Source of the DNA: an uncultured Solirubrobacterales bacterium
GTDB lineage: Bacteria > Actinomycetota > Thermoleophilia > Solirubrobacterales > Solirubrobacteraceae
Assembly: GCA_963834625.1 (NCBI GenBank)
Contig: CAWICM010000009.1
Location: forward strand, 426,706 to 490,705
Direction of reading: 5' to 3'
Length of the DNA stretch: 64,000 bases
Each line of letters begins with the position of its first letter. Within the stretch, counting starts at the first letter, position 1. The position numbers and the translations under genes were made by a program. Below, one piece after another: positions 2,825 to 58,345 of this stretch. The notes below the pieces were generated by a model that was given only the letters and a program-made list of their open reading frames with translations, was not told the origin of the DNA and did not search any database.

Positions 2825-3373
2825 TCAGGGACGCGGAAGCCGGTCGACCGCGCGACGCAGGGCGCGGGCGCTCACCGACAGGCCGATCTCGGCCAACTCG
2901 GCCGCCGCCTGGGCGGCCGTGCCGAGGATGTGCCGCCCCGTCGGCTGCTCGGGCCGGCGGTCGCGTGGCGTGGGCGGGACGCCCGCGGGCTGAGCCGGCT
3001 GACGAAGGCGGTCGGGGCGCCGGCGCGCGGTGGCTCGGGGCGGACCCGGCGTGGGTGCGGGCGTTGGCGTTGCGCTTGGCGCGGACGTGACCGCGGGTGC
3101 CGAGCTCGCGGCGGGCGCGGGCTTGGACTTGGACTTGGTGGATGCGGCGGCCGGCTTCCGGGTCGCCCGCGCCGGAGACTTGGGTCGGGCGTTTGCTCGA
3201 GCGCCGCGGGCGCGCGTTGCCGGGGTCTCGGCGTCGGTGGCGCCATTGGCGCCTGTGGCGGCGCTCGGGGCCTTCGTCGGCGCGGCGCGCTTGGCGCTCC
3301 GGCGCTGCGGACGGCGGCGCGGCAGGGCACCGAGCACGTCAGAGGGGCGTTGCTCGCTCACCGGGCCAATCAT
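2825..3373 (-). CDS. Hypothetical Ala/Pro/Lys-rich low-complexity protein
   Basis: The ORF fills the gap between the riboswitch and the sigA promoter; it has a basic low-complexity body and a helical C-terminus. Confidence 0.6.
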   Translation of the reverse strand: MIGPVSEQRPSDVLGALPRRRPQRRSAKRAAPTKAPSAATGANGATDAETPATRARGARANARPKSPARATRKPAAASTKSKSKPAPAASSAPAVTSAPSATPTPAPTPGPPRATARRRPDRLRQPAQPAGVPPTPRDRRPEQPTGRHILGTAAQAAAELAEIGLSVSARALRRAVDRLPRP

Positions 3374-9698: not shown

Positions 9699-9706
9699 CC
9701 GAGTTT

Positions 9707-9738
9707 GGCTGCCGCCCTGCCCGCGCAGGGCGGCAGCC
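9707..9738 (+). terminator. Strong hairpin after the peptidase gene
   Basis: Perfect 14-bp stem GGCTGCCGCCCTGC/GCAGGGCGGCAGCC with a 4-nt loop. Confidence 0.7.
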
Positions 9739-9820
9739 AGTCGCGCGTCGAACAAATGACGCGGACCGGATGCGCCCGCTCACTTCAGTTCGTGAAGCAT
9801 TGCGCTAACATAGGCGTTGG

Positions 9821-10753: not shown

Positions 10754-11998
10754 GTGCGCAACACCACGCTCCACGGGGTCATCGAGGCCTTCGCCACCGA
10801 GGCGGCGATGCAGCTCACGGCCGAGACGTCCTCGGGGGCGGAGATCCCGTTCGAGCTGGTCGAGACGACGGGCGGACCACGGGGCCGCGTTCCGCTGTAT
10901 TGCTATCGCCCGCTCACCGGGTCGTTCATCCGCGAGCGGCTGGGACTGCTCGCCGCCATGCCCACCTATGCGCCGGCGCTGCGCGCGCTGAGCGCGCTGG
11001 ACGGGGTCGAGGCGTACCTGCACCAGCGCGGGGAGCGGCGGATCCCGGACGAGCCGCGCGAGTGCGCCGACGCCGCGTTGCGCGTCTTCCTGTCCGAGGT
11101 GTTCGCCGAGCGGACCGAGTTCGGGTTCGATCCCGACCGGTTCGAGGACGCTTACGAGGAGCTCGAGCGGGCCCTGTACGAGGGGCGGGCGGTGACCACG
11201 GTGGTGGCACCCGTGCTGGGCGTGGTGCTGGACCCGGACACCCGCGAGCTGGCCCTCGGTGACGGCCTCTCATTGATCGCCGGCGACGCGCTCGAGGACG
11301 CGCCGTCCGAGGCGGTGTGGGGGGACGGGGAGGAGCCGCACGTGCTGATCGTCCTGACCGCGGCCCAGGACCGGACCGCGCCGGCTCCCGTGTCGGTGGC
11401 GCGGGCCCGCTTTCGCCGCACCCTGACCGCGCTGCGGCTGTTCGAGCGCGGCGGCTATGCCCTCGGCCCGGTGGCGTGGACGCGGATCGACGACGGCGCC
11501 TGGCGCTCGGTGGCGCTGGGCGGCAGCGGGCGTCCCGGCCTGCCCCGGCGGATCGCGGCCGAACAGGAGGACGAGCTGCGGGCCTTCTGCAACCTCGTGG
11601 CGCGCCGGACGCCGCGCAGCGGGGAGATCGCCTGGGCGCTGGCCCGGTTCGAGATGGGCTGTGAGCGCCTCGCGCCGTTCGAGGCGCTGACCGACTACCT
11701 GCTGGCCCTGAGAGCCCTGCTCGAGCCCGAGGGCACGGCCAGCGGGCGGCTGGCCGGCCGCCTGGCGGCGATCTGCGCAGGGCCGGAGGATCGCGCCGCG
11801 GTGGCCGAGCGCACCGCCCACGCGATCTCGCTGGAGCGGGCGGTGATCGGGGGCCTCGCGCCGGCCCATCCCGGCGTCGACTCACTCGTCGACGAGCTCA
11901 CCGAGTACCTGCGGGCCCTGCTCAGGGACGTGCTCTGCGGCCATCTCCACGCGGACCTTTGTGCGGTCGCGGACGAGCTGCTCGCCCAGGCGGTCTGA
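10754..11998 (+). CDS. Hypothetical protein with a possible degenerate ApeA-like HEPN C-terminal domain
   Basis: The C-terminal helical pattern ALARFE...EALTDYLLALRALLEP...LAGRLAAI resembles ApeA-type HEPN, but there is no R-x4-H motif. GTG start at 10754. Confidence 0.6.
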   Translation: MRNTTLHGVIEAFATEAAMQLTAETSSGAEIPFELVETTGGPRGRVPLYCYRPLTGSFIRERLGLLAAMPTYAPALRALSALDGVEAYLHQRGERRIPDEPRECADAALRVFLSEVFAERTEFGFDPDRFEDAYEELERALYEGRAVTTVVAPVLGVVLDPDTRELALGDGLSLIAGDALEDAPSEAVWGDGEEPHVLIVLTAAQDRTAPAPVSVARARFRRTLTALRLFERGGYALGPVAWTRIDDGAWRSVALGGSGRPGLPRRIAAEQEDELRAFCNLVARRTPRSGEIAWALARFEMGCERLAPFEALTDYLLALRALLEPEGTASGRLAGRLAAICAGPEDRAAVAERTAHAISLERAVIGGLAPAHPGVDSLVDELTEYLRALLRDVLCGHLHADLCAVADELLAQAV

Positions 11999-12030
11999 TG
12001 ACGACGCTCGCCCAGGCGGTCTGATGACGA
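11980..12030 (+). repeat. 26-nt tandem duplication spanning a stop codon
   Basis: GCTCGCCCAGGCGGTCTGATGACGA occurs at 11980 and at 12006. Confidence 0.9.
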
Positions 12031-12227
12031 TGCTCGCGCGGGTGGTTCGGTGGCGTCGTCGTCGACGTCGCCGCTTCGTGGTCGAGGGCCTCTGGGTGGG
12101 TCATAACCGCGCATTCGGCGCGGTCGCGGGCTCCAGTGCGCGGTCGTGACCCATATACGTGCCTGGATCCACACTCGAGCGGCGGGGCGGGGCGAGTGTG
12201 GGGCTGTGACCCAGCGCGCATGACCAG

Positions 12228-13271: not shown

Positions 13272-14129
13272 TCAGTCGGTCCTGGACTCTCGTTCCCCGG
13301 GCTCGGATTCCCGTTCCCCGGGCTCGGATTCCTGTTCCGCGCGCTCGGATTCCTGTTCCCGCGGCTCGGATTCCTGTTCCGCGGGCTCGGATTCCCGTTC
13401 CGCGCGCTCGGATTCCTGTTCCCCGGGCTCGGATTCCCGTTCCGCGCGCTCGGCCTTCCTTTTTCGCCACCGCCACACCCGCCGCCCGATGAAGAAGACG
13501 ATCACCAGCCCCACGGCGATCGCGAAATACGCCTCGTAGCGCGTCGCCGTGTTGTAGATGCTGTCGATGTGGTCGCCCGAGAAGTAGCCGATCGACACCC
13601 ACACCCCAACCCAGAGCGCGGCGCCGAGTGCGTTGAACGGGATGAACCGCGTCCAGTGCATTCCGGTGATCCCGGCGATGATCCCGTTGGCCTGTCGCAG
13701 GCCCTCGACGAACCGGGCGATCACGATCACCTTCCCGCCATGCTGGTCGAAGAAGGCCGCGGCCTTGTCCAGGCGCTCGGGGGTCAGGAAGATGTACTTG
13801 CCGAACCGCTCGGCCAGCGGCCGGCCGCCGAAATGCCCGATCGCGAAGCCGACGTTGTCGCCGAGGAGGGCGGCCAGGAAGCCGAAGAGCGCCACGAGCC
13901 AGATGTTCAGTCGCCCGGTGCCCGCATAGATCGCCGAGACGATGAGCACGGTCTCGCCGGGCACCGGAATCCCGAAGTCCTCCAGGAACACCAGACCGAG
14001 CGCGAGATAGCCGAAGCGGTCGAGCGTCGGCTCGAGGCTGTGCAGGACGCCCGGAAGATGCGCGGGCGCAGCGGCGGCCGTTAGGAGGGGGTCGAACACG
14101 GTGCAGACCCTACCCGCGGGCTCTGCCAT
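13272..14129 (-). CDS. DedA family membrane protein with an acidic heptad-repeat tail
   Basis: GIPVPGET, GDNVGFAIG and ARFVEGLR. The start may be the GTG near 14099. Confidence 0.92.
   Translation of the reverse strand: MAEPAGRVCTVFDPLLTAAAAPAHLPGVLHSLEPTLDRFGYLALGLVFLEDFGIPVPGETVLIVSAIYAGTGRLNIWLVALFGFLAALLGDNVGFAIGHFGGRPLAERFGKYIFLTPERLDKAAAFFDQHGGKVIVIARFVEGLRQANGIIAGITGMHWTRFIPFNALGAALWVGVWVSIGYFSGDHIDSIYNTATRYEAYFAIAVGLVIVFFIGRRVWRWRKRKAERAERESEPGEQESERAERESEPAEQESEPREQESERAEQESEPGERESEPGERESRTD
13290..13453 (-). repeat. In-frame 21-nt tandem repeat (about 7.5 copies) encoding ESE(P/R)x(E)(Q/R)
   Basis: Units of G(G/C)GCTCGGATTCC(C/T)GTTCC(C/G)(C/G) on the plus strand. Confidence 0.9.
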
Positions 14130-28736: not shown

Positions 28737-28775
28737 GGCTCGAGAAACGTCCCGCATGAGGACGTTTCTCGAGCC
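28737..28775. terminator. Perfect 16-bp hairpin between convergent genes (bidirectional terminator or REP-like element)
   Basis: GGCTCGAGAAACGTCC-CGCATGA-GGACGTTTCTCGAGCC. Confidence 0.7.
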
Positions 28776-33483: not shown

Positions 33484-33983
33484 CGCGCGGCGTCGTGCCC
33501 GAGGACGCCGATGCACGGCGTCAGGTTGGTCCGCGTGCGGTTGACGTAGGTCGCGCTGATCGCGCTGGCCGTGTTCCCGGCGCTCGCCGTCACCCGCACC
33601 GTGATCCGGAACGGGATCTCCTGGCCGCGTGGATAGATCCGCCCCGAGCAGCGCAGCGGGGCGTAGAAGAGCCCGTTGCCGGCGTAGGTTCCCGGTCGGG
33701 TGAGGCCAAGTGTGAGCGTGTCGGAGCCCGTCGCCCGGCCGCGCACCAGCCGCACGGTGGCGCAGGGAGCGCTCACGCACTGCGGGGTGAACGTCCAGGT
33801 GCGCTCCACGAGGAGACCGGCGCGCTCGCCACGGACGTGGTCGGCCACGGTCACGGTGCCGCTCATCTGAAAGGTGCCCTTGGGTTGCGCCGGCGGATTG
33901 GGCGGCTGGGCTTGGGCCGAGGCGGCGATGACTCCGCCCGGGACGGCGATCGCGAGCACCGCGGCGAGGACGTGCCGGCTCAT
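33456..33983 (-). CDS. Secreted hypothetical protein
   Basis: C-terminal part of the track ORF 33456..34979; signal peptide MSRHVLAAVLAIAVPGGVIAASAQA; four Cys. Confidence 0.7.
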   Translation of the reverse strand: MSRHVLAAVLAIAVPGGVIAASAQAQPPNPPAQPKGTFQMSGTVTVADHVRGERAGLLVERTWTFTPQCVSAPCATVRLVRGRATGSDTLTLGLTRPGTYAGNGLFYAPLRCSGRIYPRGQEIPFRITVRVTASAGNTASAISATYVNRTRTNLTPCIGVLGHDAARYTGLLAPG

Positions 33984-34086
33984 CCCCCGAGGGCGCGGGC
34001 GAGGGCTCATGCCCCGAGGGCGCGGGCGAGGGCTCATGCCCCGAGGGCGCGGGCGAGGGCTCATGCCCCCAGCGCGCGGGCGATCA
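33979..34086 (-). repeat. 27-nt tandem repeat duplicating a stop/start (ATGA) junction
   Basis: CTCAT(G/C)CCCCGAGGGCGCGGGCGAGGG x3 at 33979, 34006 and 34033, plus the native junction at 34060. Confidence 0.9.
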
Positions 34087-51378: not shown

Positions 51379-52677
51379 GTGAGCGCTGTCGATCTGCCGT
51401 CCGATTTCTTCAATCGGCCTCTGTCCGAGGTCGATCCGGAGATCTCCGAGGTGCTGGCGCTGGAGCTCGAGCGTCAGCAGCGAACGCTCGAGATGATCGC
51501 GTCGGAGAACTTCGTCCCGATGGCGGTGCTCGAGTGCCAGGGGTCGGTGCTCACCAACAAGTACGCCGAGGGCTATCCGGGCAAGCGCTACTACGGCGGG
51601 TGCGAGCACGTCGACTCGGCCGAGCGACTGGCGATCAAGCGTGCGCTGGAGCTGTTCGGCGCCGAGCACGCCAACGTCCAGCCCCATTCGGGCGCGCAGG
51701 CCAACATCGCCGTCTACCACGCGCTGTTGGAGCCCGGCGACACCGTGATGGGCCTGGAGCTCTCCCACGGCGGCCACTTGACCCACGGCATGCGGATCAA
51801 CGTCTCGGGCCGGCTGTACGACATCGCTCCCTACCACGTCGACCGCGAGACCGGGCTGATCGACATGGACGAGGTGCAGCGGATCGCGCAGGAGCGACAG
51901 CCCAAGATGATCCTCGCCGGCTGGTCGGCCTACCCACGGTTCCTTGACTTCGAGCGCTTCCGGGCGATCGCCGACGAGGTCGGCGCCTATCTCGTCGTCG
52001 ACATGGCGCACTTCGCCGGCCTGGTCGCGGCGGGGCTCCATCCTTCGCCGATCCCATACGCGGACGTCGTGACCACGACCATCCACAAGACGATCGGCGG
52101 CGGGCGCGGCGGGCTGATCCTGTGCCGCGAGGAGTACGCCAAGCGGATCGACTCCGGGGTGTTCCCGGGCCAGCAGGGCGGGCCGCTGGAGCACATCATC
52201 GCCGGCAAGGCGGTGGCGCTGCGGATCGCCCAGTCCGAGGCCTTCCGCGAGCGCCAGGAGCGCACCGTGGTCGGCGCCCGGGCGGTGGCGGCCGAGCTTT
52301 TGCGCGCCGGCGGAGGCGTGAGCGTGCTGACGGGCGGCACCGACGTGCATCTGGTTTTGTGCGATCTGCGGGAGTCCTCGCTGGACGGCCAGCAGGCCGA
52401 GGACCGGCTGCACTCGATCGGAATCACCGTGAACCGCAACGCCGTGCCGTTCGACCCGCGCCCACCGGCGGTGTCCAGCGGGCTGCGGATCGGCACACCG
52501 GCGCTGGCCACGCGTGGCCTGCAGCTGGATGACTTCGTCGAGGTCGGCATGATCATCGCCGAGGCTCTCGGCCAGGACGACTTCGATTCTCGTCGCGGGG
52601 ATCTTGGGGACCGTGCGTCGGCCATCGCCGAGCGCTATCCGCTGTACCCGCGCGTCGGCGCCGCGGCGATCGTCTAG
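51379..52677 (+). CDS. glyA: Serine hydroxymethyltransferase
   Basis: [36 protein letters not shown] and SGLRIGT. Confidence 0.97.
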
Positions 52678-52774
52678 GGATCGTCAAAACTTCGTTCCAA
52701 CTCGGTTCCGTTTGGGGCTGGGGCGGGTCGGCGGGACGATTCCGGGTTGATACTGGCCATCGTGAGCCAGAGAC

Positions 52775-52945
52775 GACGCGTAAAACACGTCACGCCGACC
52801 CGGCTCCCGGAGGCGTGACGAATTGTCCGCCTGGGGGATGGCTGAGTCGTCACGCCCGGCGAGCGGCGGGAGGCGTGACGAATTGTCCGCCTGGGGGACG
52901 GCTGATTCGTCACGCCTAGCGAGCAGCGGGAGGCGTGACGCGTAA
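52775..52945. repeat. 60-bp-period array of three hairpins, flanked by a 9-bp direct repeat
   Basis: CGTCACGCC-N15-GGCGTGACG at 52788, 52848 and 52908, with near-identical 27-nt linkers; GACGCGTAA at 52775 and 52937. Confidence 0.9.
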
Positions 52946-53826
52946 TGCGTGCCGTGGAGAGCGGGATCGCCCGGATCGCCGCGCGTCAGGACAACGTGAT
53001 CACGCTGGGGCAGCTGCTCGCGGCGGGCCTTGGCCCCGACGCGGTGGCGTACCGCGTCAAGGCTCGCATCATGCAACGGCTCCACCGCGGCGTCTTCCTG
53101 CTCGGCGCTGCGCCACCGACACGGATGGCGCGTGCCCGGGCCGCGGTGATGGCATGCGGTGACGGTGCGGTGCTCAGCCATCGCTCAGCCGCAGAGTTGT
53201 TCGCTTTGCTGGTGGAGAGCGATCGAGAGGTCGACGTTACGGTGGTGGGGCGCAACCCGGGCGTCCACTCGGGGGTTCGGCTTCATCGCCCACGGGCGCT
53301 GGCCCGCGCGGATCTGACGAATGTGCGTGGCGTCGCCGTCACCTCGATCGCGCGGACGATCTGCGACATGGCCGCCACTGAGCCAGCCAAGCACGTCGAG
53401 CATGCCTACCAGGAGGCGCTGTATCGGCGGATCGTGACCGAGCGACACATGGCGGCGGTCCTCAAGCGCGAGCCGAGCCGGCGGGGCGCGTCGGTGATCC
53501 GTGCCCTACTCGAAGACCCGGGGATGACGCGGTCGGAGAAGGAGCGGGCGCTGCTGAAGCTCCTCAGGCAGGCCCAGCTGCCCAAGCCGCTCACCAACGT
53601 ACGCCTGCATGGGTATCTGGTCGACGCGTACTGGCCGGACCACGGCCTCGTCCTGGAGTTCGACGGCTGGCAGGCCCACGGCCACCGGTCGGCGTTCGAA
53701 AAGGACCGCAAACGCGACCAGGTGCTGCTCGCCAACGGCTTGCGGGTCATCCGGGTGACCGACCGGCAACTGAAGTACGAGCCGGTTGCGGTGGCCGCTC
53801 GGATCGCGATGGCCCTCAGGGGGTGA
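52945..53826 (+). CDS. AbiEi-like N-terminal domain plus DUF559 (Vsr-like) endonuclease domain protein
   Basis: AARQ..VIT..QL..AG...RLHRGVF at the N-terminus; RS..E, VD.YW, LEFDG...H, DR.RD..L...G.RVIRVT at the C-terminus. Confidence 0.9.
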   Translation: MRAVESGIARIAARQDNVITLGQLLAAGLGPDAVAYRVKARIMQRLHRGVFLLGAAPPTRMARARAAVMACGDGAVLSHRSAAELFALLVESDREVDVTVVGRNPGVHSGVRLHRPRALARADLTNVRGVAVTSIARTICDMAATEPAKHVEHAYQEALYRRIVTERHMAAVLKREPSRRGASVIRALLEDPGMTRSEKERALLKLLRQAQLPKPLTNVRLHGYLVDAYWPDHGLVLEFDGWQAHGHRSAFEKDRKRDQVLLANGLRVIRVTDRQLKYEPVAVAARIAMALRG

Positions 53827-54918
53827 CTACTCGAACGCCGCCACGGTCGCGAGGATCACGAACGCGGCCATCAGCGCCGCGCCCTCGAACACGGTGGCCT
53901 CGCCGTCGCCGGTGATCTGCCACATGATGATCGCGGTCCCGATCAGCGCGCCGATGTACACCGGCGCGAGGGCGAACGTCAGCGTGGTGGGGGTGAGCAG
54001 CGAGACGAGCACCAGCACCGGGTACAGGAACGCGGCGATCTGCGAGACGGAGTTCTTGACCACCGCGATCGCGAGGTCGGGGTGGCCCTTAGCGGCGAGC
54101 ACCACGCCGACCGCGTGCTCGACCGCGTTGCCGGCGATGGCCACGATGACCAGGCCGGCGAACGCCTTGGAGATGTGCAGGGTGTGGATCGTCGGCTCGA
54201 GCGCGTTGACGAACCAATCGGAGACGAAGGCCGAGGCGGCTCCGGCCCCGATGAGCAGGACGATGCTCGCCACGAACCCCAACCGGGCGTGGCCGCGCCC
54301 TTCCCCGATGTTGGCGTCCGCAGCGGTGAGGTATTGGCGCAGCCAGGTCACGTACACGAACAGGATCGCCACCGCCCCGACGATCGAGATCGTCTTGACG
54401 TGATGGCTGGCCGCATCGCCGGCCGAGTTGGTCAGCCCGATCAGCACGATGATGAACGAGGCGACCAGCATCAATGTGGCGGTGTCGTTGGGGAGCCGGG
54501 CATTGAAGCGCATCACGCCGTCGTTCTCGCGCCGGGCGCCGACCACGATCACCAGCCCGAGCACGAGCAGCGCATTGACCAGGATCGAACCGAGGATCGC
54601 CGTCTCGGCGACCACCTTCTCCCCGGCCTGGAGCGCGAACAGCACGACGAAGAACTCGGGCAGATTCCCGACCGTCGCCTGCATGACACCCGTCACCGCG
54701 GGGCCCAGCCGCTCCCCGACCTGCTCGGTGGCAAAGGCCACGATCCAGGCCATGCCGGCGAGTGCGAGGGTCGCCAGCACGAAGGCCACGATGCGGGACA
54801 CACCGTGGGCGTAACGGGTGACGCCCGCCAGCACGGCGACCAGCGTGACCGCCGCCAGGAGTCCCTTCTCGCTTCGGGTCAGCCCGCTCGGCCGCGTGTC
54901 GGCCGCAGCAGCTCCCAC
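53827..54918 (-). CDS. Ca2+/H+ antiporter (CAX/ChaA family)
   Basis: GNLPE and GNAVEH alpha-repeat motifs in a polytopic membrane protein. Confidence 0.9.
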   Translation of the reverse strand: MGAAAADTRPSGLTRSEKGLLAAVTLVAVLAGVTRYAHGVSRIVAFVLATLALAGMAWIVAFATEQVGERLGPAVTGVMQATVGNLPEFFVVLFALQAGEKVVAETAILGSILVNALLVLGLVIVVGARRENDGVMRFNARLPNDTATLMLVASFIIVLIGLTNSAGDAASHHVKTISIVGAVAILFVYVTWLRQYLTAADANIGEGRGHARLGFVASIVLLIGAGAASAFVSDWFVNALEPTIHTLHISKAFAGLVIVAIAGNAVEHAVGVVLAAKGHPDLAIAVVKNSVSQIAAFLYPVLVLVSLLTPTTLTFALAPVYIGALIGTAIIMWQITGDGEATVFEGAALMAAFVILATVAAFE

Positions 54919-54938
54919 CTAGTGCCCCTCCGGCGGCA

Positions 54939-56147
54939 CTAGCCCACCCGCTCGAACTCGCCGGTCTCGACCTCGCGCTGTACGCGCTCGTCGATCTCGT
55001 GCTCGCTGCTGGCGGGTTCGGTCGTGCGCAGCTCCCGGATTCGCCGGTTCTTGAACTTGAGGATCTCGAGCAGGTAGATCAGATACACGCTGGCGGCCAG
55101 GGCGATCACGCCGATGGCCGCCATCACCAGCAGCCACCCCAAGTGGTAGGTCCCGTCGTGGTTGGAGTAGGGGATGAAGCGAAGCGCGACGGCCACGCAG
55201 GCCAGCATCAAGGTCCACCCGTACAGGTAGGCGACCGTGCGGCGCTGGCTGTAGCCCATGCGCGCCATCCGATGGTGGAAGTGGTTCGTGTCGGCCGACC
55301 AGGGCTTGCGCCTGTACTTCAGGCGCTTGGCCACGACGAACCCGGTGTCCAGGAACGGCACCGCGAGCAGGATCAGCGGCACGACGAGGGTGACCACCGC
55401 GCCGGTCTTGATCGAGCCGACCACGGCCACTACGCCGAGCAGGTAGCCGAGCAGATTCGCGCCGCAGTCGCCCATCAACGACGAGGCGGGGTAGAAGTTG
55501 TGGAACAGGAAGCCGAGCGAGGCTCCGGCGGTGAGGGCGGCCAGCACTCCCGCCCCCGGCACGTTGAGGTCGAACGCGATGATCGCGAACGCGACCCCCT
55601 CGATCGTGCACAAACCGGCGGCCAGCCCGTCGATCCCGTCGGAGAGGTTGACGACGTTCATCATCCCGACCAGCCAGATCACGGTCAGCACGCCGCCGGC
55701 GTTGGGGAGCTGGAGCGTGCCGGCGAACGGGATCGTCACGTCGGTCACCACCACGCCACCCTTCACGGCGATCAACGCCGCCGCGATCTGGCCCAGGAGC
55801 TTCGCCAGCGGCTTGAGCGGACGGGCGTCGTCGATCGCGCCGACCAGCGCGATCAGGCACGCGCCGGCCACGATCGTCCAGGTGTGCACGATTCCTCCGG
55901 CGCCGGGGGCGGTTCCGGCCGTGTGGCGCAGGCTGATCGTTTCCGGCAGCCAGATCAGCGCCCCGAGCAGGACGCCGGCCAGGATGGCCAGGCCACCCAG
56001 CGCGGGCGTGGCGCGCTCGGCCAGTCCGCGCTCGGAGGGCATGACGACCGCGCCGACCCGTCGCGCAAGGCGGGAGGTCAACGGCGTCAGGATGGTGGCG
56101 ACCGCGGTCGCGACCAGGAATGCGAAGAAGGCGTCCCAGTACCGCAT
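54939..56147 (-). CDS. MraY/WecA family (GT4) polyprenyl-phosphate sugar-1-phosphate transferase
   Basis: GAIDD, NVVNLSDGIDGLA, FHNFYPA..LMGD.G and D.NHFHH. Confidence 0.93.
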   Translation of the reverse strand: MRYWDAFFAFLVATAVATILTPLTSRLARRVGAVVMPSERGLAERATPALGGLAILAGVLLGALIWLPETISLRHTAGTAPGAGGIVHTWTIVAGACLIALVGAIDDARPLKPLAKLLGQIAAALIAVKGGVVVTDVTIPFAGTLQLPNAGGVLTVIWLVGMMNVVNLSDGIDGLAAGLCTIEGVAFAIIAFDLNVPGAGVLAALTAGASLGFLFHNFYPASSLMGDCGANLLGYLLGVVAVVGSIKTGAVVTLVVPLILLAVPFLDTGFVVAKRLKYRRKPWSADTNHFHHRMARMGYSQRRTVAYLYGWTLMLACVAVALRFIPYSNHDGTYHLGWLLVMAAIGVIALAASVYLIYLLEILKFKNRRIRELRTTEPASSEHEIDERVQREVETGEFERVG

Positions 56148-56244
56148 GCCGTCAGGGAAGCATGCCAGCAGCGCAGGACTGGTGCGCGAACCGGCCGGAC
56201 CGCCCACCGTACGCGCGCGAGTCCGGACCTCGCGAGCGGGACAA

Positions 56245-56279
56245 AATCTGCTATCTTACGTTTACGTAAGCTTCAGATT
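56245..56279. promoter_or_regulatory. MerR-type palindromic operator candidate upstream of the MFS-MerR operon
   Basis: CTTACGT-TT-ACGTAAG (56255-56270) nested in AATCTG/CAGATT. Confidence 0.65.
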
Positions 56280-56296
56280 CAGAGATTCGGAGGATC

Positions 56297-57811
56297 ATGT
56301 CAGCAGTACCAGCGGACCGGGCTCGGAGAATCGGCGTCCACGCCGAGCACGACTCCTACAAGTGGTGGGCGCTCTCGTGCACGAGCCTCGGAATGCTGCT
56401 GGCGACGATCAACTCGGGCACGCTGATCATCGCCCTACCCGACCTCGAGCGCAGTCTCCACACGAGCCTGCTCGAGCTCGTGTGGGTGATCCTCGTCTAC
56501 ATGATCGCCTCGACCGTGCTCGTGCTGAGCGCGGGCCGTCTGTCTGATCAGTTCGGTCGTAAGCAGGCCTACATCGGCGGTTTCGTGCTGTTCGCCGTCG
56601 CCTCGCTTGGCGCCGGGTTCGCCGCCAATGGAACTCAGTTGATCCTGTGGCGGATCGCCCAGGGCGTAGGCGGTTCATTCCTGTTCGCCAACGCCGCGGC
56701 GATCGTGACCGACGCCTTCCCGCGCGAGCAGCTCGGGCTGGCCATGGGCACGAACACGATGGTGGCCGCCGTCGGGCTGGTCATCGGTCCGGTGCTCGGT
56801 GGCGCGCTGGTGGCGATCTCCTGGCACTGGGTGTTCTGGTTCAACGTGCCCTTCGCCCTCGGCGGGAGCCTGTGGGCCGCGCTCATCCTTCACGAGGTCA
56901 CCGGGCGCTCTGAGGACACGAGCTTCGACGCCCTGGGGACGATCACGTTGCTGATCGGGCTGACCGGCCTCGTGTACGGCATCTCCAAGGGCGGGCTCTC
57001 GGGTTGGGACAACACCGCCGTGATCGCGAGCCTGATCGCCGCGGCCGTTCTGCTCCCCGGGTTCGTCCTGATCGAGAGCCACGTCAAGTCCCCCATGCTC
57101 GATCTCTCGATCTTCAAGAGCCGGCTGTTCTCGGCCGCCTCCCTGGCCGCCTTCACGAACGGCCTGGCCCGGTTCGCGCTGATGTTCGTTTTCGTCTTCT
57201 ACTTCCAGGGCGTCCAGGGCGACTCGCCGATCCTGGCCGGCATCAAGCTGGCGCCGCTGGCGATCGGGATGCTGATCGCCTCGCCGCTCGCCGGGATCTG
57301 GGCCGACCGCCGCGGATCGCGCGGGATGGCCGTGGCCGGAATGCTCGTGCAGGCAATCGGGCTCGCTCTGATGACCACGCTGGAGCGCGATACGACCTAC
57401 GTTGCCAGCTGCGTCTACATGCTGATCGTCGGCATCGGGTCGGGGATGTTCAACTCGCCCAACACGGCCGCGATGATGGGCACGGTTCCCGCCCACCGGC
57501 GCGGCATCGCCGCCGGCGCCCGGGTGCTCGTCCAGAACACCGGGGCGGTCATCTCGATCGCGTTCGTGCTCGCGGTCGTCACCTCGAGCGTGCCCAAGCA
57601 CGTCCTGCTCGCGGTGTTCTCCGGCGTGGCCAAGCACATCTCGAACGCCCAACTGGTCCCGTTCATGTCGAACATGCACACGGCCCTGTGGTGCCTGGCC
57701 GCGATCTCGCTCGTCGGCGCCTTCATCTCGGCCGCCCGGCCGGCCCACGTCAAGAACGAGGCCGAGACTGCGGCGCCGCCGGAGCCGGCGCGGGAGAGGG
57801 TGGCAGCGTGA
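56297..57811 (+). CDS. MFS transporter, DHA2/EmrB family (14 TM)
   Basis: GRLSDQFGRK, WRIAQG, IGPVLGG and WHWVFWFNVP. Confidence 0.93.
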   Translation: MSAVPADRARRIGVHAEHDSYKWWALSCTSLGMLLATINSGTLIIALPDLERSLHTSLLELVWVILVYMIASTVLVLSAGRLSDQFGRKQAYIGGFVLFAVASLGAGFAANGTQLILWRIAQGVGGSFLFANAAAIVTDAFPREQLGLAMGTNTMVAAVGLVIGPVLGGALVAISWHWVFWFNVPFALGGSLWAALILHEVTGRSEDTSFDALGTITLLIGLTGLVYGISKGGLSGWDNTAVIASLIAAAVLLPGFVLIESHVKSPMLDLSIFKSRLFSAASLAAFTNGLARFALMFVFVFYFQGVQGDSPILAGIKLAPLAIGMLIASPLAGIWADRRGSRGMAVAGMLVQAIGLALMTTLERDTTYVASCVYMLIVGIGSGMFNSPNTAAMMGTVPAHRRGIAAGARVLVQNTGAVISIAFVLAVVTSSVPKHVLLAVFSGVAKHISNAQLVPFMSNMHTALWCLAAISLVGAFISAARPAHVKNEAETAAPPEPARERVAA

Positions 57812-58317
57812 GCAGCACTCAGACCAAGCCGCTGCGGATCGGTGAGGTGGCCGAGTTGCTCGGCACCACCCCGCGCACGATCCGCTACTACGAGGAGATC
57901 GGGCTACTGCCCGACGCGGGCGACCGCGAGCAGGGCAAGCACCGCTGCTACACCGACGCCGACGTCGAACGGGCGCGCGAGATCATGCGTCTGCGCGACC
58001 TGCTCGGGTTGACCCTCGAGGAGATCTCGGCGCTGCTCGAGGCCGAGGACGCCCGCGCCCAGCTCCGGCGCGAGATCCGGGAGACCGAGGATCCCGTGGA
58101 GATCAGGCGCATCCTGGAGGAGGCGCTCGGGCACATCGCCAACCAGCTGGAGCTGGTACGCCACCGCCGCAGCGAGCTCGAGCAGCTCGAGTCCGAGCTG
58201 GTGACCAAGCGGCGCACGATCCACAAGCGCCTGGGGGAGCTGGAAGGGGTGAGGGTGGCGGCTCCGGCGGAGCTGGAAGGGGTGAGGGTGGCGGCTCCGG
58301 CGGAGCTGGAAGGGTGA
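57808..58317 (+). CDS. MerR family transcriptional regulator
   Basis: RIGEVAELLG...RTIRYYEEIGLL...RCY and LGLTLEEI; GTGA overlap with the MFS gene. Confidence 0.93.
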   Translation: MSSTQTKPLRIGEVAELLGTTPRTIRYYEEIGLLPDAGDREQGKHRCYTDADVERAREIMRLRDLLGLTLEEISALLEAEDARAQLRREIRETEDPVEIRRILEEALGHIANQLELVRHRRSELEQLESELVTKRRTIHKRLGELEGVRVAAPAELEGVRVAAPAELEG

Positions 58318-58333
58318 GGGTGGCGGCTCCCGC
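58236..58333 (+). repeat. 33-nt tandem repeat x3 at the merR 3' end; the third copy lacks one G
   Basis: GGAGCTGGAAGGGGTGAGGGTGGCGGCTCCGGC at 58236 and 58269; the copy at 58302 has GGG instead of GGGG. Confidence 0.9.
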
Positions 58334-58345
58334 GGAGCCGGAGCA

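Follow-up and report, generated by a model that had tools for sequence, protein, structure and literature searches.

The closest described relatives of the locus reported here belong to the AbiEi/Rv2827c group (COG5340) of type IV AbiE toxin-antitoxin (TA) systems. The AbiEi antitoxin of Streptococcus agalactiae binds two 23-base-pair (bp) inverted repeats that lie 3 bp apart, and Rv2827c of Mycobacterium tuberculosis binds four 23-bp repeats between positions -1 and -131 relative to its start codon, in which 13 bp separate the members of a pair and 4 bp separate the pairs; the Rv2827c repeats differ in affinity, and the outcome is negative autoregulation (Beck et al. 2020, PMC7319586). In a 64,000-nucleotide (nt) stretch of DNA from an uncultured Solirubrobacterales bacterium (assembly GCA_963834625.1, contig CAWICM010000009.1, positions 426,706 to 490,705 of the forward strand), which as a whole is referred to below as the window, a comparable array of repeats precedes a gene whose 293-amino-acid (aa) product is predicted to join an AbiEi-like protein to a Vsr-like nuclease domain (DUF559). 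From comparison of related loci and by analogy with the AbiEi proteins, we consider it probable that this array controls the adjacent gene in cis, most likely as an operator of the AbiEi type.

Actinomycetota very commonly encode AbiEi-DUF559 fusions, and in the literature on DUF559 and on AbiEi with Vsr we found no functional study of such fusions. The predicted four-repeat operator, which overlaps the start codon, would give the protein a concrete DNA target and suggests tight self-repression of the nuclease. It also appears that the AbiEi DNA-binding module is reused outside TA pairs.

The array upstream of the nuclease gene

The nuclease gene (52945-53826, + strand, TGA stop at 53824-53826) is separated from the stop codon of glyA by a 267-nt non-coding spacer. 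A first-pass annotation of the window, made from the sequence letters, had described three hairpin units here with a 60-bp period, 15-nt variable loops, near-constant linkers and a direct repeat, and this description was borne out. Exact CGTCACGCC-N15-GGCGTGACG units start at 52788, 52848 and 52908 (none expected, from 100 shuffles), at a period of exactly 60 bp, with 15-nt loops that differ and linkers that are near-identical; no further exact unit of this kind occurs elsewhere in the 64-kb window. The direct repeat GACGCGTAA is found at 52775-52783 and 52937-52945. An imperfect hairpin had been noted further upstream as well. The inverted pairing GGGATCGTC/GACGATTCC, also written GGATCGTC/GACGATTCC, does exist (9 nt, 89%), but it is not conserved: because its 3' arm sits in a short window-specific insertion that is missing from relatives, the pairing is probably due to chance.

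Relatives of the locus were sampled as 3 loci from an exact look-up, 39 from metagenomes and 64 from species-representative genomes (alignment-based genome scan). All were collected via the nuclease gene itself, and their flanking genes were identified by tblastn; a metagenome protein scan yielded just 4 close relatives. Homologues of the protein number more than 1,200, of which the best 120 have 65-87% identity and are nearly all equal in length, and where the source names them, they come from Solirubrobacteraceae or Solirubrobacterales.

For 52 relatives, an alignment of the arms with one another, in which the CA/TG dinucleotide invariant in every arm served as the anchor, shows the four to be copies of a single bipartite 23-nt sequence (.aCaTGCA.AAC.CGtCAcgccc), arranged in the order -> <- -> <- and separated by 15-16, 1-5 and 15-16 nt; together they span about 121 nt that end at the ATG. 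Since the fourth copy contains the start codon, codon 2 covaries with sequence 110 nt upstream, that is, with the first inverted repeat (IR1), across the family (pairs 47-163 and 48-162).

All aligned relatives carry four repeats and the window six; counted as hairpins of the kind first described, there are two units in all relatives and three in the window only. Six 23-nt inverted repeats, IR1 to IR6, appear to describe the units of the window better than three hairpins do. IR1 (52775-52797, + strand, GACGCGTAAAACACGTCACGCCG) and IR6 (52931-52953, - strand), which holds the start codon at 52945-52947 together with codons 2 and 3, each agree with the consensus at 16 of 20 positions. IR2 (52811-52833, - strand) and IR3 (52835-52857, + strand, 1 nt from IR2) both agree at 14 of 20, and IR5 (52895-52917, + strand) at 12 of 20; IR4 (52871-52893, - strand) is identical to IR2 and part of the extra 60-bp unit. 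Because relatives have two units and the window, when aligned to the family by the covariance model, shows an insertion of 62 nt, this third unit is a window-private 60-bp tandem duplication, located by Tandem Repeats Finder at 52809-52940 (period 60, 2.2 copies, 93% matches). A scan of the 64-kb window with the covariance model returned one match, the array itself.

The array has paired 23-nt repeats in common with the AbiEi/Rv2827c group and matches that of Rv2827c almost one for one: four repeats extend over about 121 nt up to the start codon, compared with -1 to -131; the inner gap is 1-5 nt, compared with 3-4 bp as published; and the spacing within pairs is 13-16 nt across the two. Unlike in AbiEi and Rv2827c, the ATG falls within the last repeat, the two inner repeats form a palindrome that is nearly perfect, a putative -10 element seems to precede the repeats, and the operator is a predicted one. 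In distant relatives (33-44% identity) a single repeat pair is found (CTGACA-AAC-GCGCCAC), with the ATG in its 3-5-nt gap, and this would represent an AbiEi-like two-repeat version.

The repeats are part of a longer conserved leader. About 215 nt upstream of the gene can be aligned almost gap-free in more than 55 loci (50-87% protein identity), in the order of one or two GTTCCAA boxes, an invariant GATACT, a conserved GTGAG and then the segment of about 121 nt that ends just past the ATG. In the window, GTTCCAA lies at 52694-52700 (+ strand; it is kept upstream in about 60 loci of the family) and GATACT at 52749-52754 (+ strand), about 20 nt before the first repeat. GATACT is invariant in 52 of 52 related leaders and is probably a -10 promoter element, although a simple sigma-70 consensus promoter scan of the upstream region gave no matches, GATACT included; a terminator scan of the same region was likewise negative. 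The GTTCCAA box is too distant from GATACT to serve as its -35 element; it is duplicated about 33 nt apart in loci of one gene arrangement (arrangement B, below), and its reverse complement contains GGAAC. A terminator of glyA was considered for this region and rejected, as there is no T-tract and this leader is also present where glyA is not upstream.

As the first-pass annotation had supposed, the repeats belong to the nuclease gene: they are inherited together with it into other loci, the upstream block of about 215-260 nt moving with the gene into other loci and arrangements. The comparison of paralogue and relative flanks that it had proposed agrees with this, as relatives, distant ones included, carry their own versions of the palindrome. 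In 570 kb of related loci, the strong array matches all lie directly 5' of the gene, with the exception of one locus (L078) that is discussed below.

Two loci carry altered leaders. In L080 (1452-3015), an insertion of about 1.4 kb interrupts the central gap of the leader, the 5' half of the array lying at 1452-1545 and the 3' half just ahead of the ATG at 3001; the inserted DNA codes for a protein of 428 aa whose GHWEGDL motif we take to be IS30-like. In L071 (2940-3001), the gene is intact and only about 55 nt separate the glyA stop from the ATG; GTTCCAA is kept, GATACT and repeats a-c are missing, and L085 in the same genome has a full array. In the distant relatives L009-L034, a conserved G-rich motif, GGGGGCGA-N5-6-CGG, is seen about 20-35 nt upstream (e.g., L016:2349-2433, L028:2290-2440 and L012:2100-2170). 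It is tandemly repeated four times in L028, and in L012 a CCGAACCG repeat is found close by.

An AbiEi-like protein with a C-terminal nuclease domain

The PADLOC AbiEi profiles match residues 9-179 of the protein (E = 9.5e-27), and the whole 184-position profile is covered. Pfam finds three families only: DUF559 at residues 196-291 (nt 53530-53817, E = 6e-9), MTES_1575, and AbiEi_4 at residues 8-53 (E = 3.8e-5), the last with 24.1 bits, slightly under its cut-off of 25. The AbiEi-like part extends over about residues 8-180 (nt ~52966-53484). An AlphaFold2 model has a mean predicted local distance difference test score (pLDDT) of 85, residues 242-253 being of low confidence (pLDDT below 50). 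In a Foldseek search of this model against PDB, the first ~200 residues resemble the whole of the S. agalactiae AbiEi antitoxin (6Y8Q, probability 1.0, template modelling [TM] score 0.60 normalised to the target, 201 aligned columns), and the last ~95 residues resemble the catalytic domain of I-Bth0305I (3R3P), the DUF559 protein NGO0050 (3HRL) and Vsr (1CW0), with TM scores of 0.72-0.75 to 3R3P and 3HRL. A PDB search by sequence and an NCBIfam search of the protein gave no informative matches. Judging from the model, an AbiEi-like DNA-binding protein that is complete, with both winged helix and C-terminal domain, is likely to be joined here to a Vsr-like nuclease, and the two-domain AbiEi fold would be shared with AbiEi and Rv2827c.

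Among 36 homologues, the EFDGWxxHGH motif and D258 form a conserved block in which E238, D240, H245, R255 and D258 are invariant and H247 falls in the class conserved in at least 90%. Both the C-terminal fold and this acidic/histidine block are common to Vsr/DUF559 (PD-(D/E)XK) proteins and to the EDxHD homing endonuclease I-Bth0305I; unlike these, the present protein carries an AbiEi-like N-terminal targeting module, is not located in an intron or intein, and has no visible methyltransferase partner. The pairwise ratio of nonsynonymous to synonymous substitution rates (dN/dS) is about 0.26, which denotes purifying selection, and the nuclease-fusion gene appears to be functional.

The earlier domain call, AbiEi plus DUF559 with no AbiEii, was right in the light of Pfam, PADLOC, fold and neighbouring genes. 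No AbiEii/DUF1814 gene adjoins the fusion gene in the window, and none lies within 4 kb on either side in the orthologous locus. Unlike in AbiE systems, a C-terminal Vsr/DUF559 nuclease domain stands in place of an AbiEii/DUF1814 toxin gene, and the gene is syntenic beside housekeeping genes and not in a defence island. An AbiE TA pair is apparently not formed here, and the gene would work like an AbiEi regulator that has no AbiEii toxin.

DNA operator or mRNA hairpin

If the protein behaves as AbiEi and Rv2827c do, it would bind the 23-nt repeats as a monomer, through the N-terminal winged helix, and this binding would repress the protein's own gene. Such self-repression could limit a potentially genotoxic nuclease to small amounts, set by the protein itself. 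If transcribed, the nested palindrome may also fold into a hairpin that buries the AUG, a possible added translational lock which the data do not require. We infer binding, repression and the position of the promoter; the repeat architecture with its conservation and covariation, the folds of the protein, the synteny and the purifying selection come from the analysis itself. Two further features of the family count for an operator. One is the linkage of the upstream block to the gene, and the other is concerted change: repeats of the same locus are more alike than repeats of different loci for every site pair, and core position 3 changes from C to T in all four sites together.

Another explanation, which we consider unlikely, is that the segment acts primarily in the mRNA leader. 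Here, about -113 to +8 would be transcribed, and a nested hairpin (stems P0 to P3, with the ATG in the 3' arm of P0) would sequester the AUG and lock translation of the nuclease until it is opened or processed. The pairing itself is far above controls: the nested structure has 80.5% of cells paired, compared with 20-43% in slid controls, and a covariation score of 0.364, compared with 0.04-0.11. Compensatory changes are seen in 26 of the 33 nested pairs, none of 500 shuffles reaches the observed values, and covariation links the far-upstream arm to codons 2-3. Almost all leaders fold into one rod, with z = -5.2 for the window region, and transcription of the repeats is suggested by the invariant GATACT that precedes them. 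The leaders have no conserved Shine-Dalgarno sequence. The likeness is to start-codon-occluding hairpins in 5' untranslated regions, such as those of type I toxin mRNAs, in that the start codon for a potentially toxic product would lie within a long stem whose pairs covary.

However, an alternating single motif yields a nested palindrome and its covariation automatically, and a common motif with invariant dinucleotides in all four arms is not explained by pairing alone. Unlike in those untranslated-region hairpins, the substitutions are not of the RNA type. G-U and A-C oppositions number 77 and 86, so that there is no G-U excess, and folding energy has no strand bias (the + strand folds better in 28 of 53 leaders, p = 0.72; the difference in folding free energy, dG(+) minus dG(-), is -0.6 +/- 10 kcal/mol). 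The 16-nt spacers, which would be internal loops, are fixed in length and variable in sequence, and their complementarity is not above chance (self -12.8 vs cross -12.2 kcal/mol, p = 0.12). Non-pairing, unconserved loops of conserved length would be unusual for an RNA element; a fixed spacer length is what helical phasing of protein sites predicts. RNAalifold, run on the 52-leader alignment, recovers only the inner stems P2 and P3, the outer stems having been specified by hand, and no Rfam family was matched between 50000 and 56000, even with E values up to 1 allowed. Because G-U and strand bias are missing and the spacers are length-fixed and non-complementary, a DNA operator is favoured over an RNA structure, and the suggestion that this might be an RNA-array-associated nuclease found no support in the same substitution and strand results or in the Rfam scan.

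Side-by-side hairpins with 15-nt loops were tried as the family structure and rejected. They leave 62.7% of cells paired and keep only a 4-bp core outside the window's subfamily, and they are weak because the first and second arms differ in most relatives. In more general terms, alternating protein-binding repeats mimic a covarying RNA hairpin and can pass an RNA covariation test, and G-U/A-C counts, strand energies and spacer tests are needed before such an array is called a structured RNA or a repetitive extragenic palindromic (REP)-like element.

The following findings weigh against an AbiEi-type operator. (i) The four sites are not equivalent: identity is 0.68 between the outer sites and 0.81 between the inner sites, and 0.56-0.59 for the other site pairs, and at the free "N" of their core the two inner sites covary (pair 89-121: CG 20, GC 12, AU 10, UA 2). 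Four equivalent sites do not predict this nested excess, which needs either distinct inner and outer roles or a real hairpin; distinct roles, as in Rv2827c, or a hairpin in mRNA or DNA as a second layer could explain it. (ii) In one clade the core changes from CG to TG at all four sites, and the recognition helix and wing show no obvious change. (iii) If GATACT is the -10 element, the repeats would lie downstream of the transcription start and not over the promoter, unlike in AbiEi. (iv) No RNA evidence for the array came from public runs, and the matching runs are all DNA metagenomes. The window sequence was found in five low-coverage soil DNA metagenomes only, in which contigs break inside the array.

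A correlation of core-motif type with winged-helix residues was tried and set aside, being confounded by phylogeny and not clean. Within single genomes, the paralogues L045 and L092 share the repeat core CGTCACGC, and the pairs L057/L067 and L065/L073 have differing cores (CGTCA vs GCGCGC and TGCCA vs GCGCGC, respectively). Depending on the genome, paralogues may thus be able to cross-regulate or may avoid doing so.

Synteny, duplication and mobility of the nuclease gene

The nuclease gene is present in all three local arrangements of the neighbourhood formed by glyA, a wecA-like glycosyltransferase gene (GT4), an antiporter gene and an MFS gene. In arrangement C, which is that of the most divergent members (35-52% identity), the order is glyA> nuclease> GT4> antiporter> MFS>. 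Arrangement A, that of the window, has the GT4-antiporter block of arrangement C inverted, and arrangement B, found in many genomes, has the nuclease-GT4-antiporter block inverted. With the window as the reference (51379-57811, compared with L043-L106), the three gene orders appear to be explained by in-place inversions with breakpoints at the edges of the cassette. Junctions of glyA and the antiporter that lack the nuclease gene do exist in arrangement B; in these loci, which were found via the gene, it lies 3 kb away. From this synteny, the nuclease gene appears to be a long-standing resident across Solirubrobacterales and not a recent insertion. The first-pass annotation had described the cassette as wedged between two stop codons. 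The stops of the nuclease gene and of the antiporter gene do abut, but the cause would be the inversion of the GT4-antiporter block and not an insertion. Order-wide synteny with glyA and the wecA-like gene, combined with recurrent local inversions, is a modest additional curiosity.

Additional paralogues, which have the whole upstream region, are present in no fewer than three further conserved contexts (LacI|x|GH65 among them), and copy number in the subfamily is 1-3 per genome. The paralogues carry the last 18-27 nt of glyA, homology of L001 and L043 starting at window positions 52660 and 52651. Because these boundaries are imprecise and lie inside glyA, they indicate that a segment of the glyA locus was duplicated, and not a transposition with defined ends.

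Two arrays without a gene were found in L078 (6459-6576 and 6703-6821, scoring 82 and 66 bits); they cover model positions 37-155 and lack the promoter part. A tandem unit of about 245 bp just downstream of the antiporter gene, in a genome of arrangement B, contains them. As this is the position that the cassette has in arrangement A, they are possibly a relic of inversion.

We think it quite unlikely that the gene is a self-regulated, self-targeting nuclease module, or a single-chain TA or defence effector, that occasionally nicks its own array. If this were true, self-targeted nicking would explain the inversions, the gene-less arrays of L078, the extra 60-bp unit and the dispersal of leader plus gene.

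A selfish or recombinogenic module of nuclease plus target seems very doubtful to us. In such a module the AbiEi-like domain would guide the nuclease to the palindromes, and nicks or breaks would promote copying, inversion and duplication of the cassette. The resemblance of the nuclease fold to a homing endonuclease catalytic domain (3R3P) would fit, as would paralogues that travel with the whole leader and a vestige of the glyA 3' end, inversion breakpoints at the cassette edges in three arrangements, the gene-less arrays at the glyA|antiporter junction of L078 and the window's own 60-bp duplication. Yet such solo copies occur in one of about 100 loci, the subfamily stays at 1-3 copies per genome, the synteny is order-wide, host genes typically have a dN/dS like the 0.26 found here, and the imprecise paralogue boundaries inside glyA point to segmental duplication.

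The form of this idea put forward in the first-pass annotation, an element like REP sequences and their REP-associated tyrosine transposases (RAYT), is not supported. The likeness lies in a palindromic repeat beside a nuclease-type gene, with repeats that are paralogue-specific. Unlike in REP/RAYT, the enzyme class differs, with no HUH/Y1 (IS200-like) transposase domain found in the protein by Pfam or fold search, and the repeats are undispersed (a single array in 64 kb), one-sided, lying only 5' of the gene, and overlap the start codon. Nor is there support for the gene as the mobiliser of other palindromes, a possibility that had been raised; those elsewhere in the window (e.g., 9706-9739 and 28737-28775) have no sequence in common with the array.

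Finally, a functionless tandem repeat or chance palindrome, that is, an intergenic expansion like a variable number tandem repeat, is scarcely credible: it could apply only to the extra 60-bp unit, which is private and looks like slippage or unequal crossing-over. The unconserved GGATCGTC/GACGATTCC pairing would fit it too, but the four-repeat core keeps its position, length and symmetry in the >55 aligned loci, with no chance matches expected.

Neighbouring genes and other repeats of the window

The layout first described between the TAG of glyA and the TAG of the antiporter gene was confirmed, coordinates included. Upstream lies glyA (51379-52677, + strand, Pfam SHMT E = 9e-155, TAG stop at 52675-52677). 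The convergent downstream neighbour (53827-54918, - strand) encodes an antiporter of the Na+/Ca2+ exchanger family (Na_Ca_ex, Pfam E = 4.5e-25), and its stop codon at 53827-53829 directly adjoins that of the nuclease open reading frame. In the orthologous locus, the neighbours are RF-1, PrmC, Sua5, SHMT, Na_Ca_ex, Glycos_transf_4, MFS and MerR.

Other tandem arrays of the window lie at 13284-13453, 33977-34083, 58236-58342 and 11980-12037, with periods of 21/63, 27, 33 and 26 bp, respectively, and are unrelated in sequence; the first three, whose periods are multiples of 3, may be coding repeats. Perfect stem-loops, again unrelated to the array, are found at 9706-9739 (15-bp stem, loop of 4 nt) and 28737-28775 (16-bp stem, loop of 7 nt), and these could be terminators.

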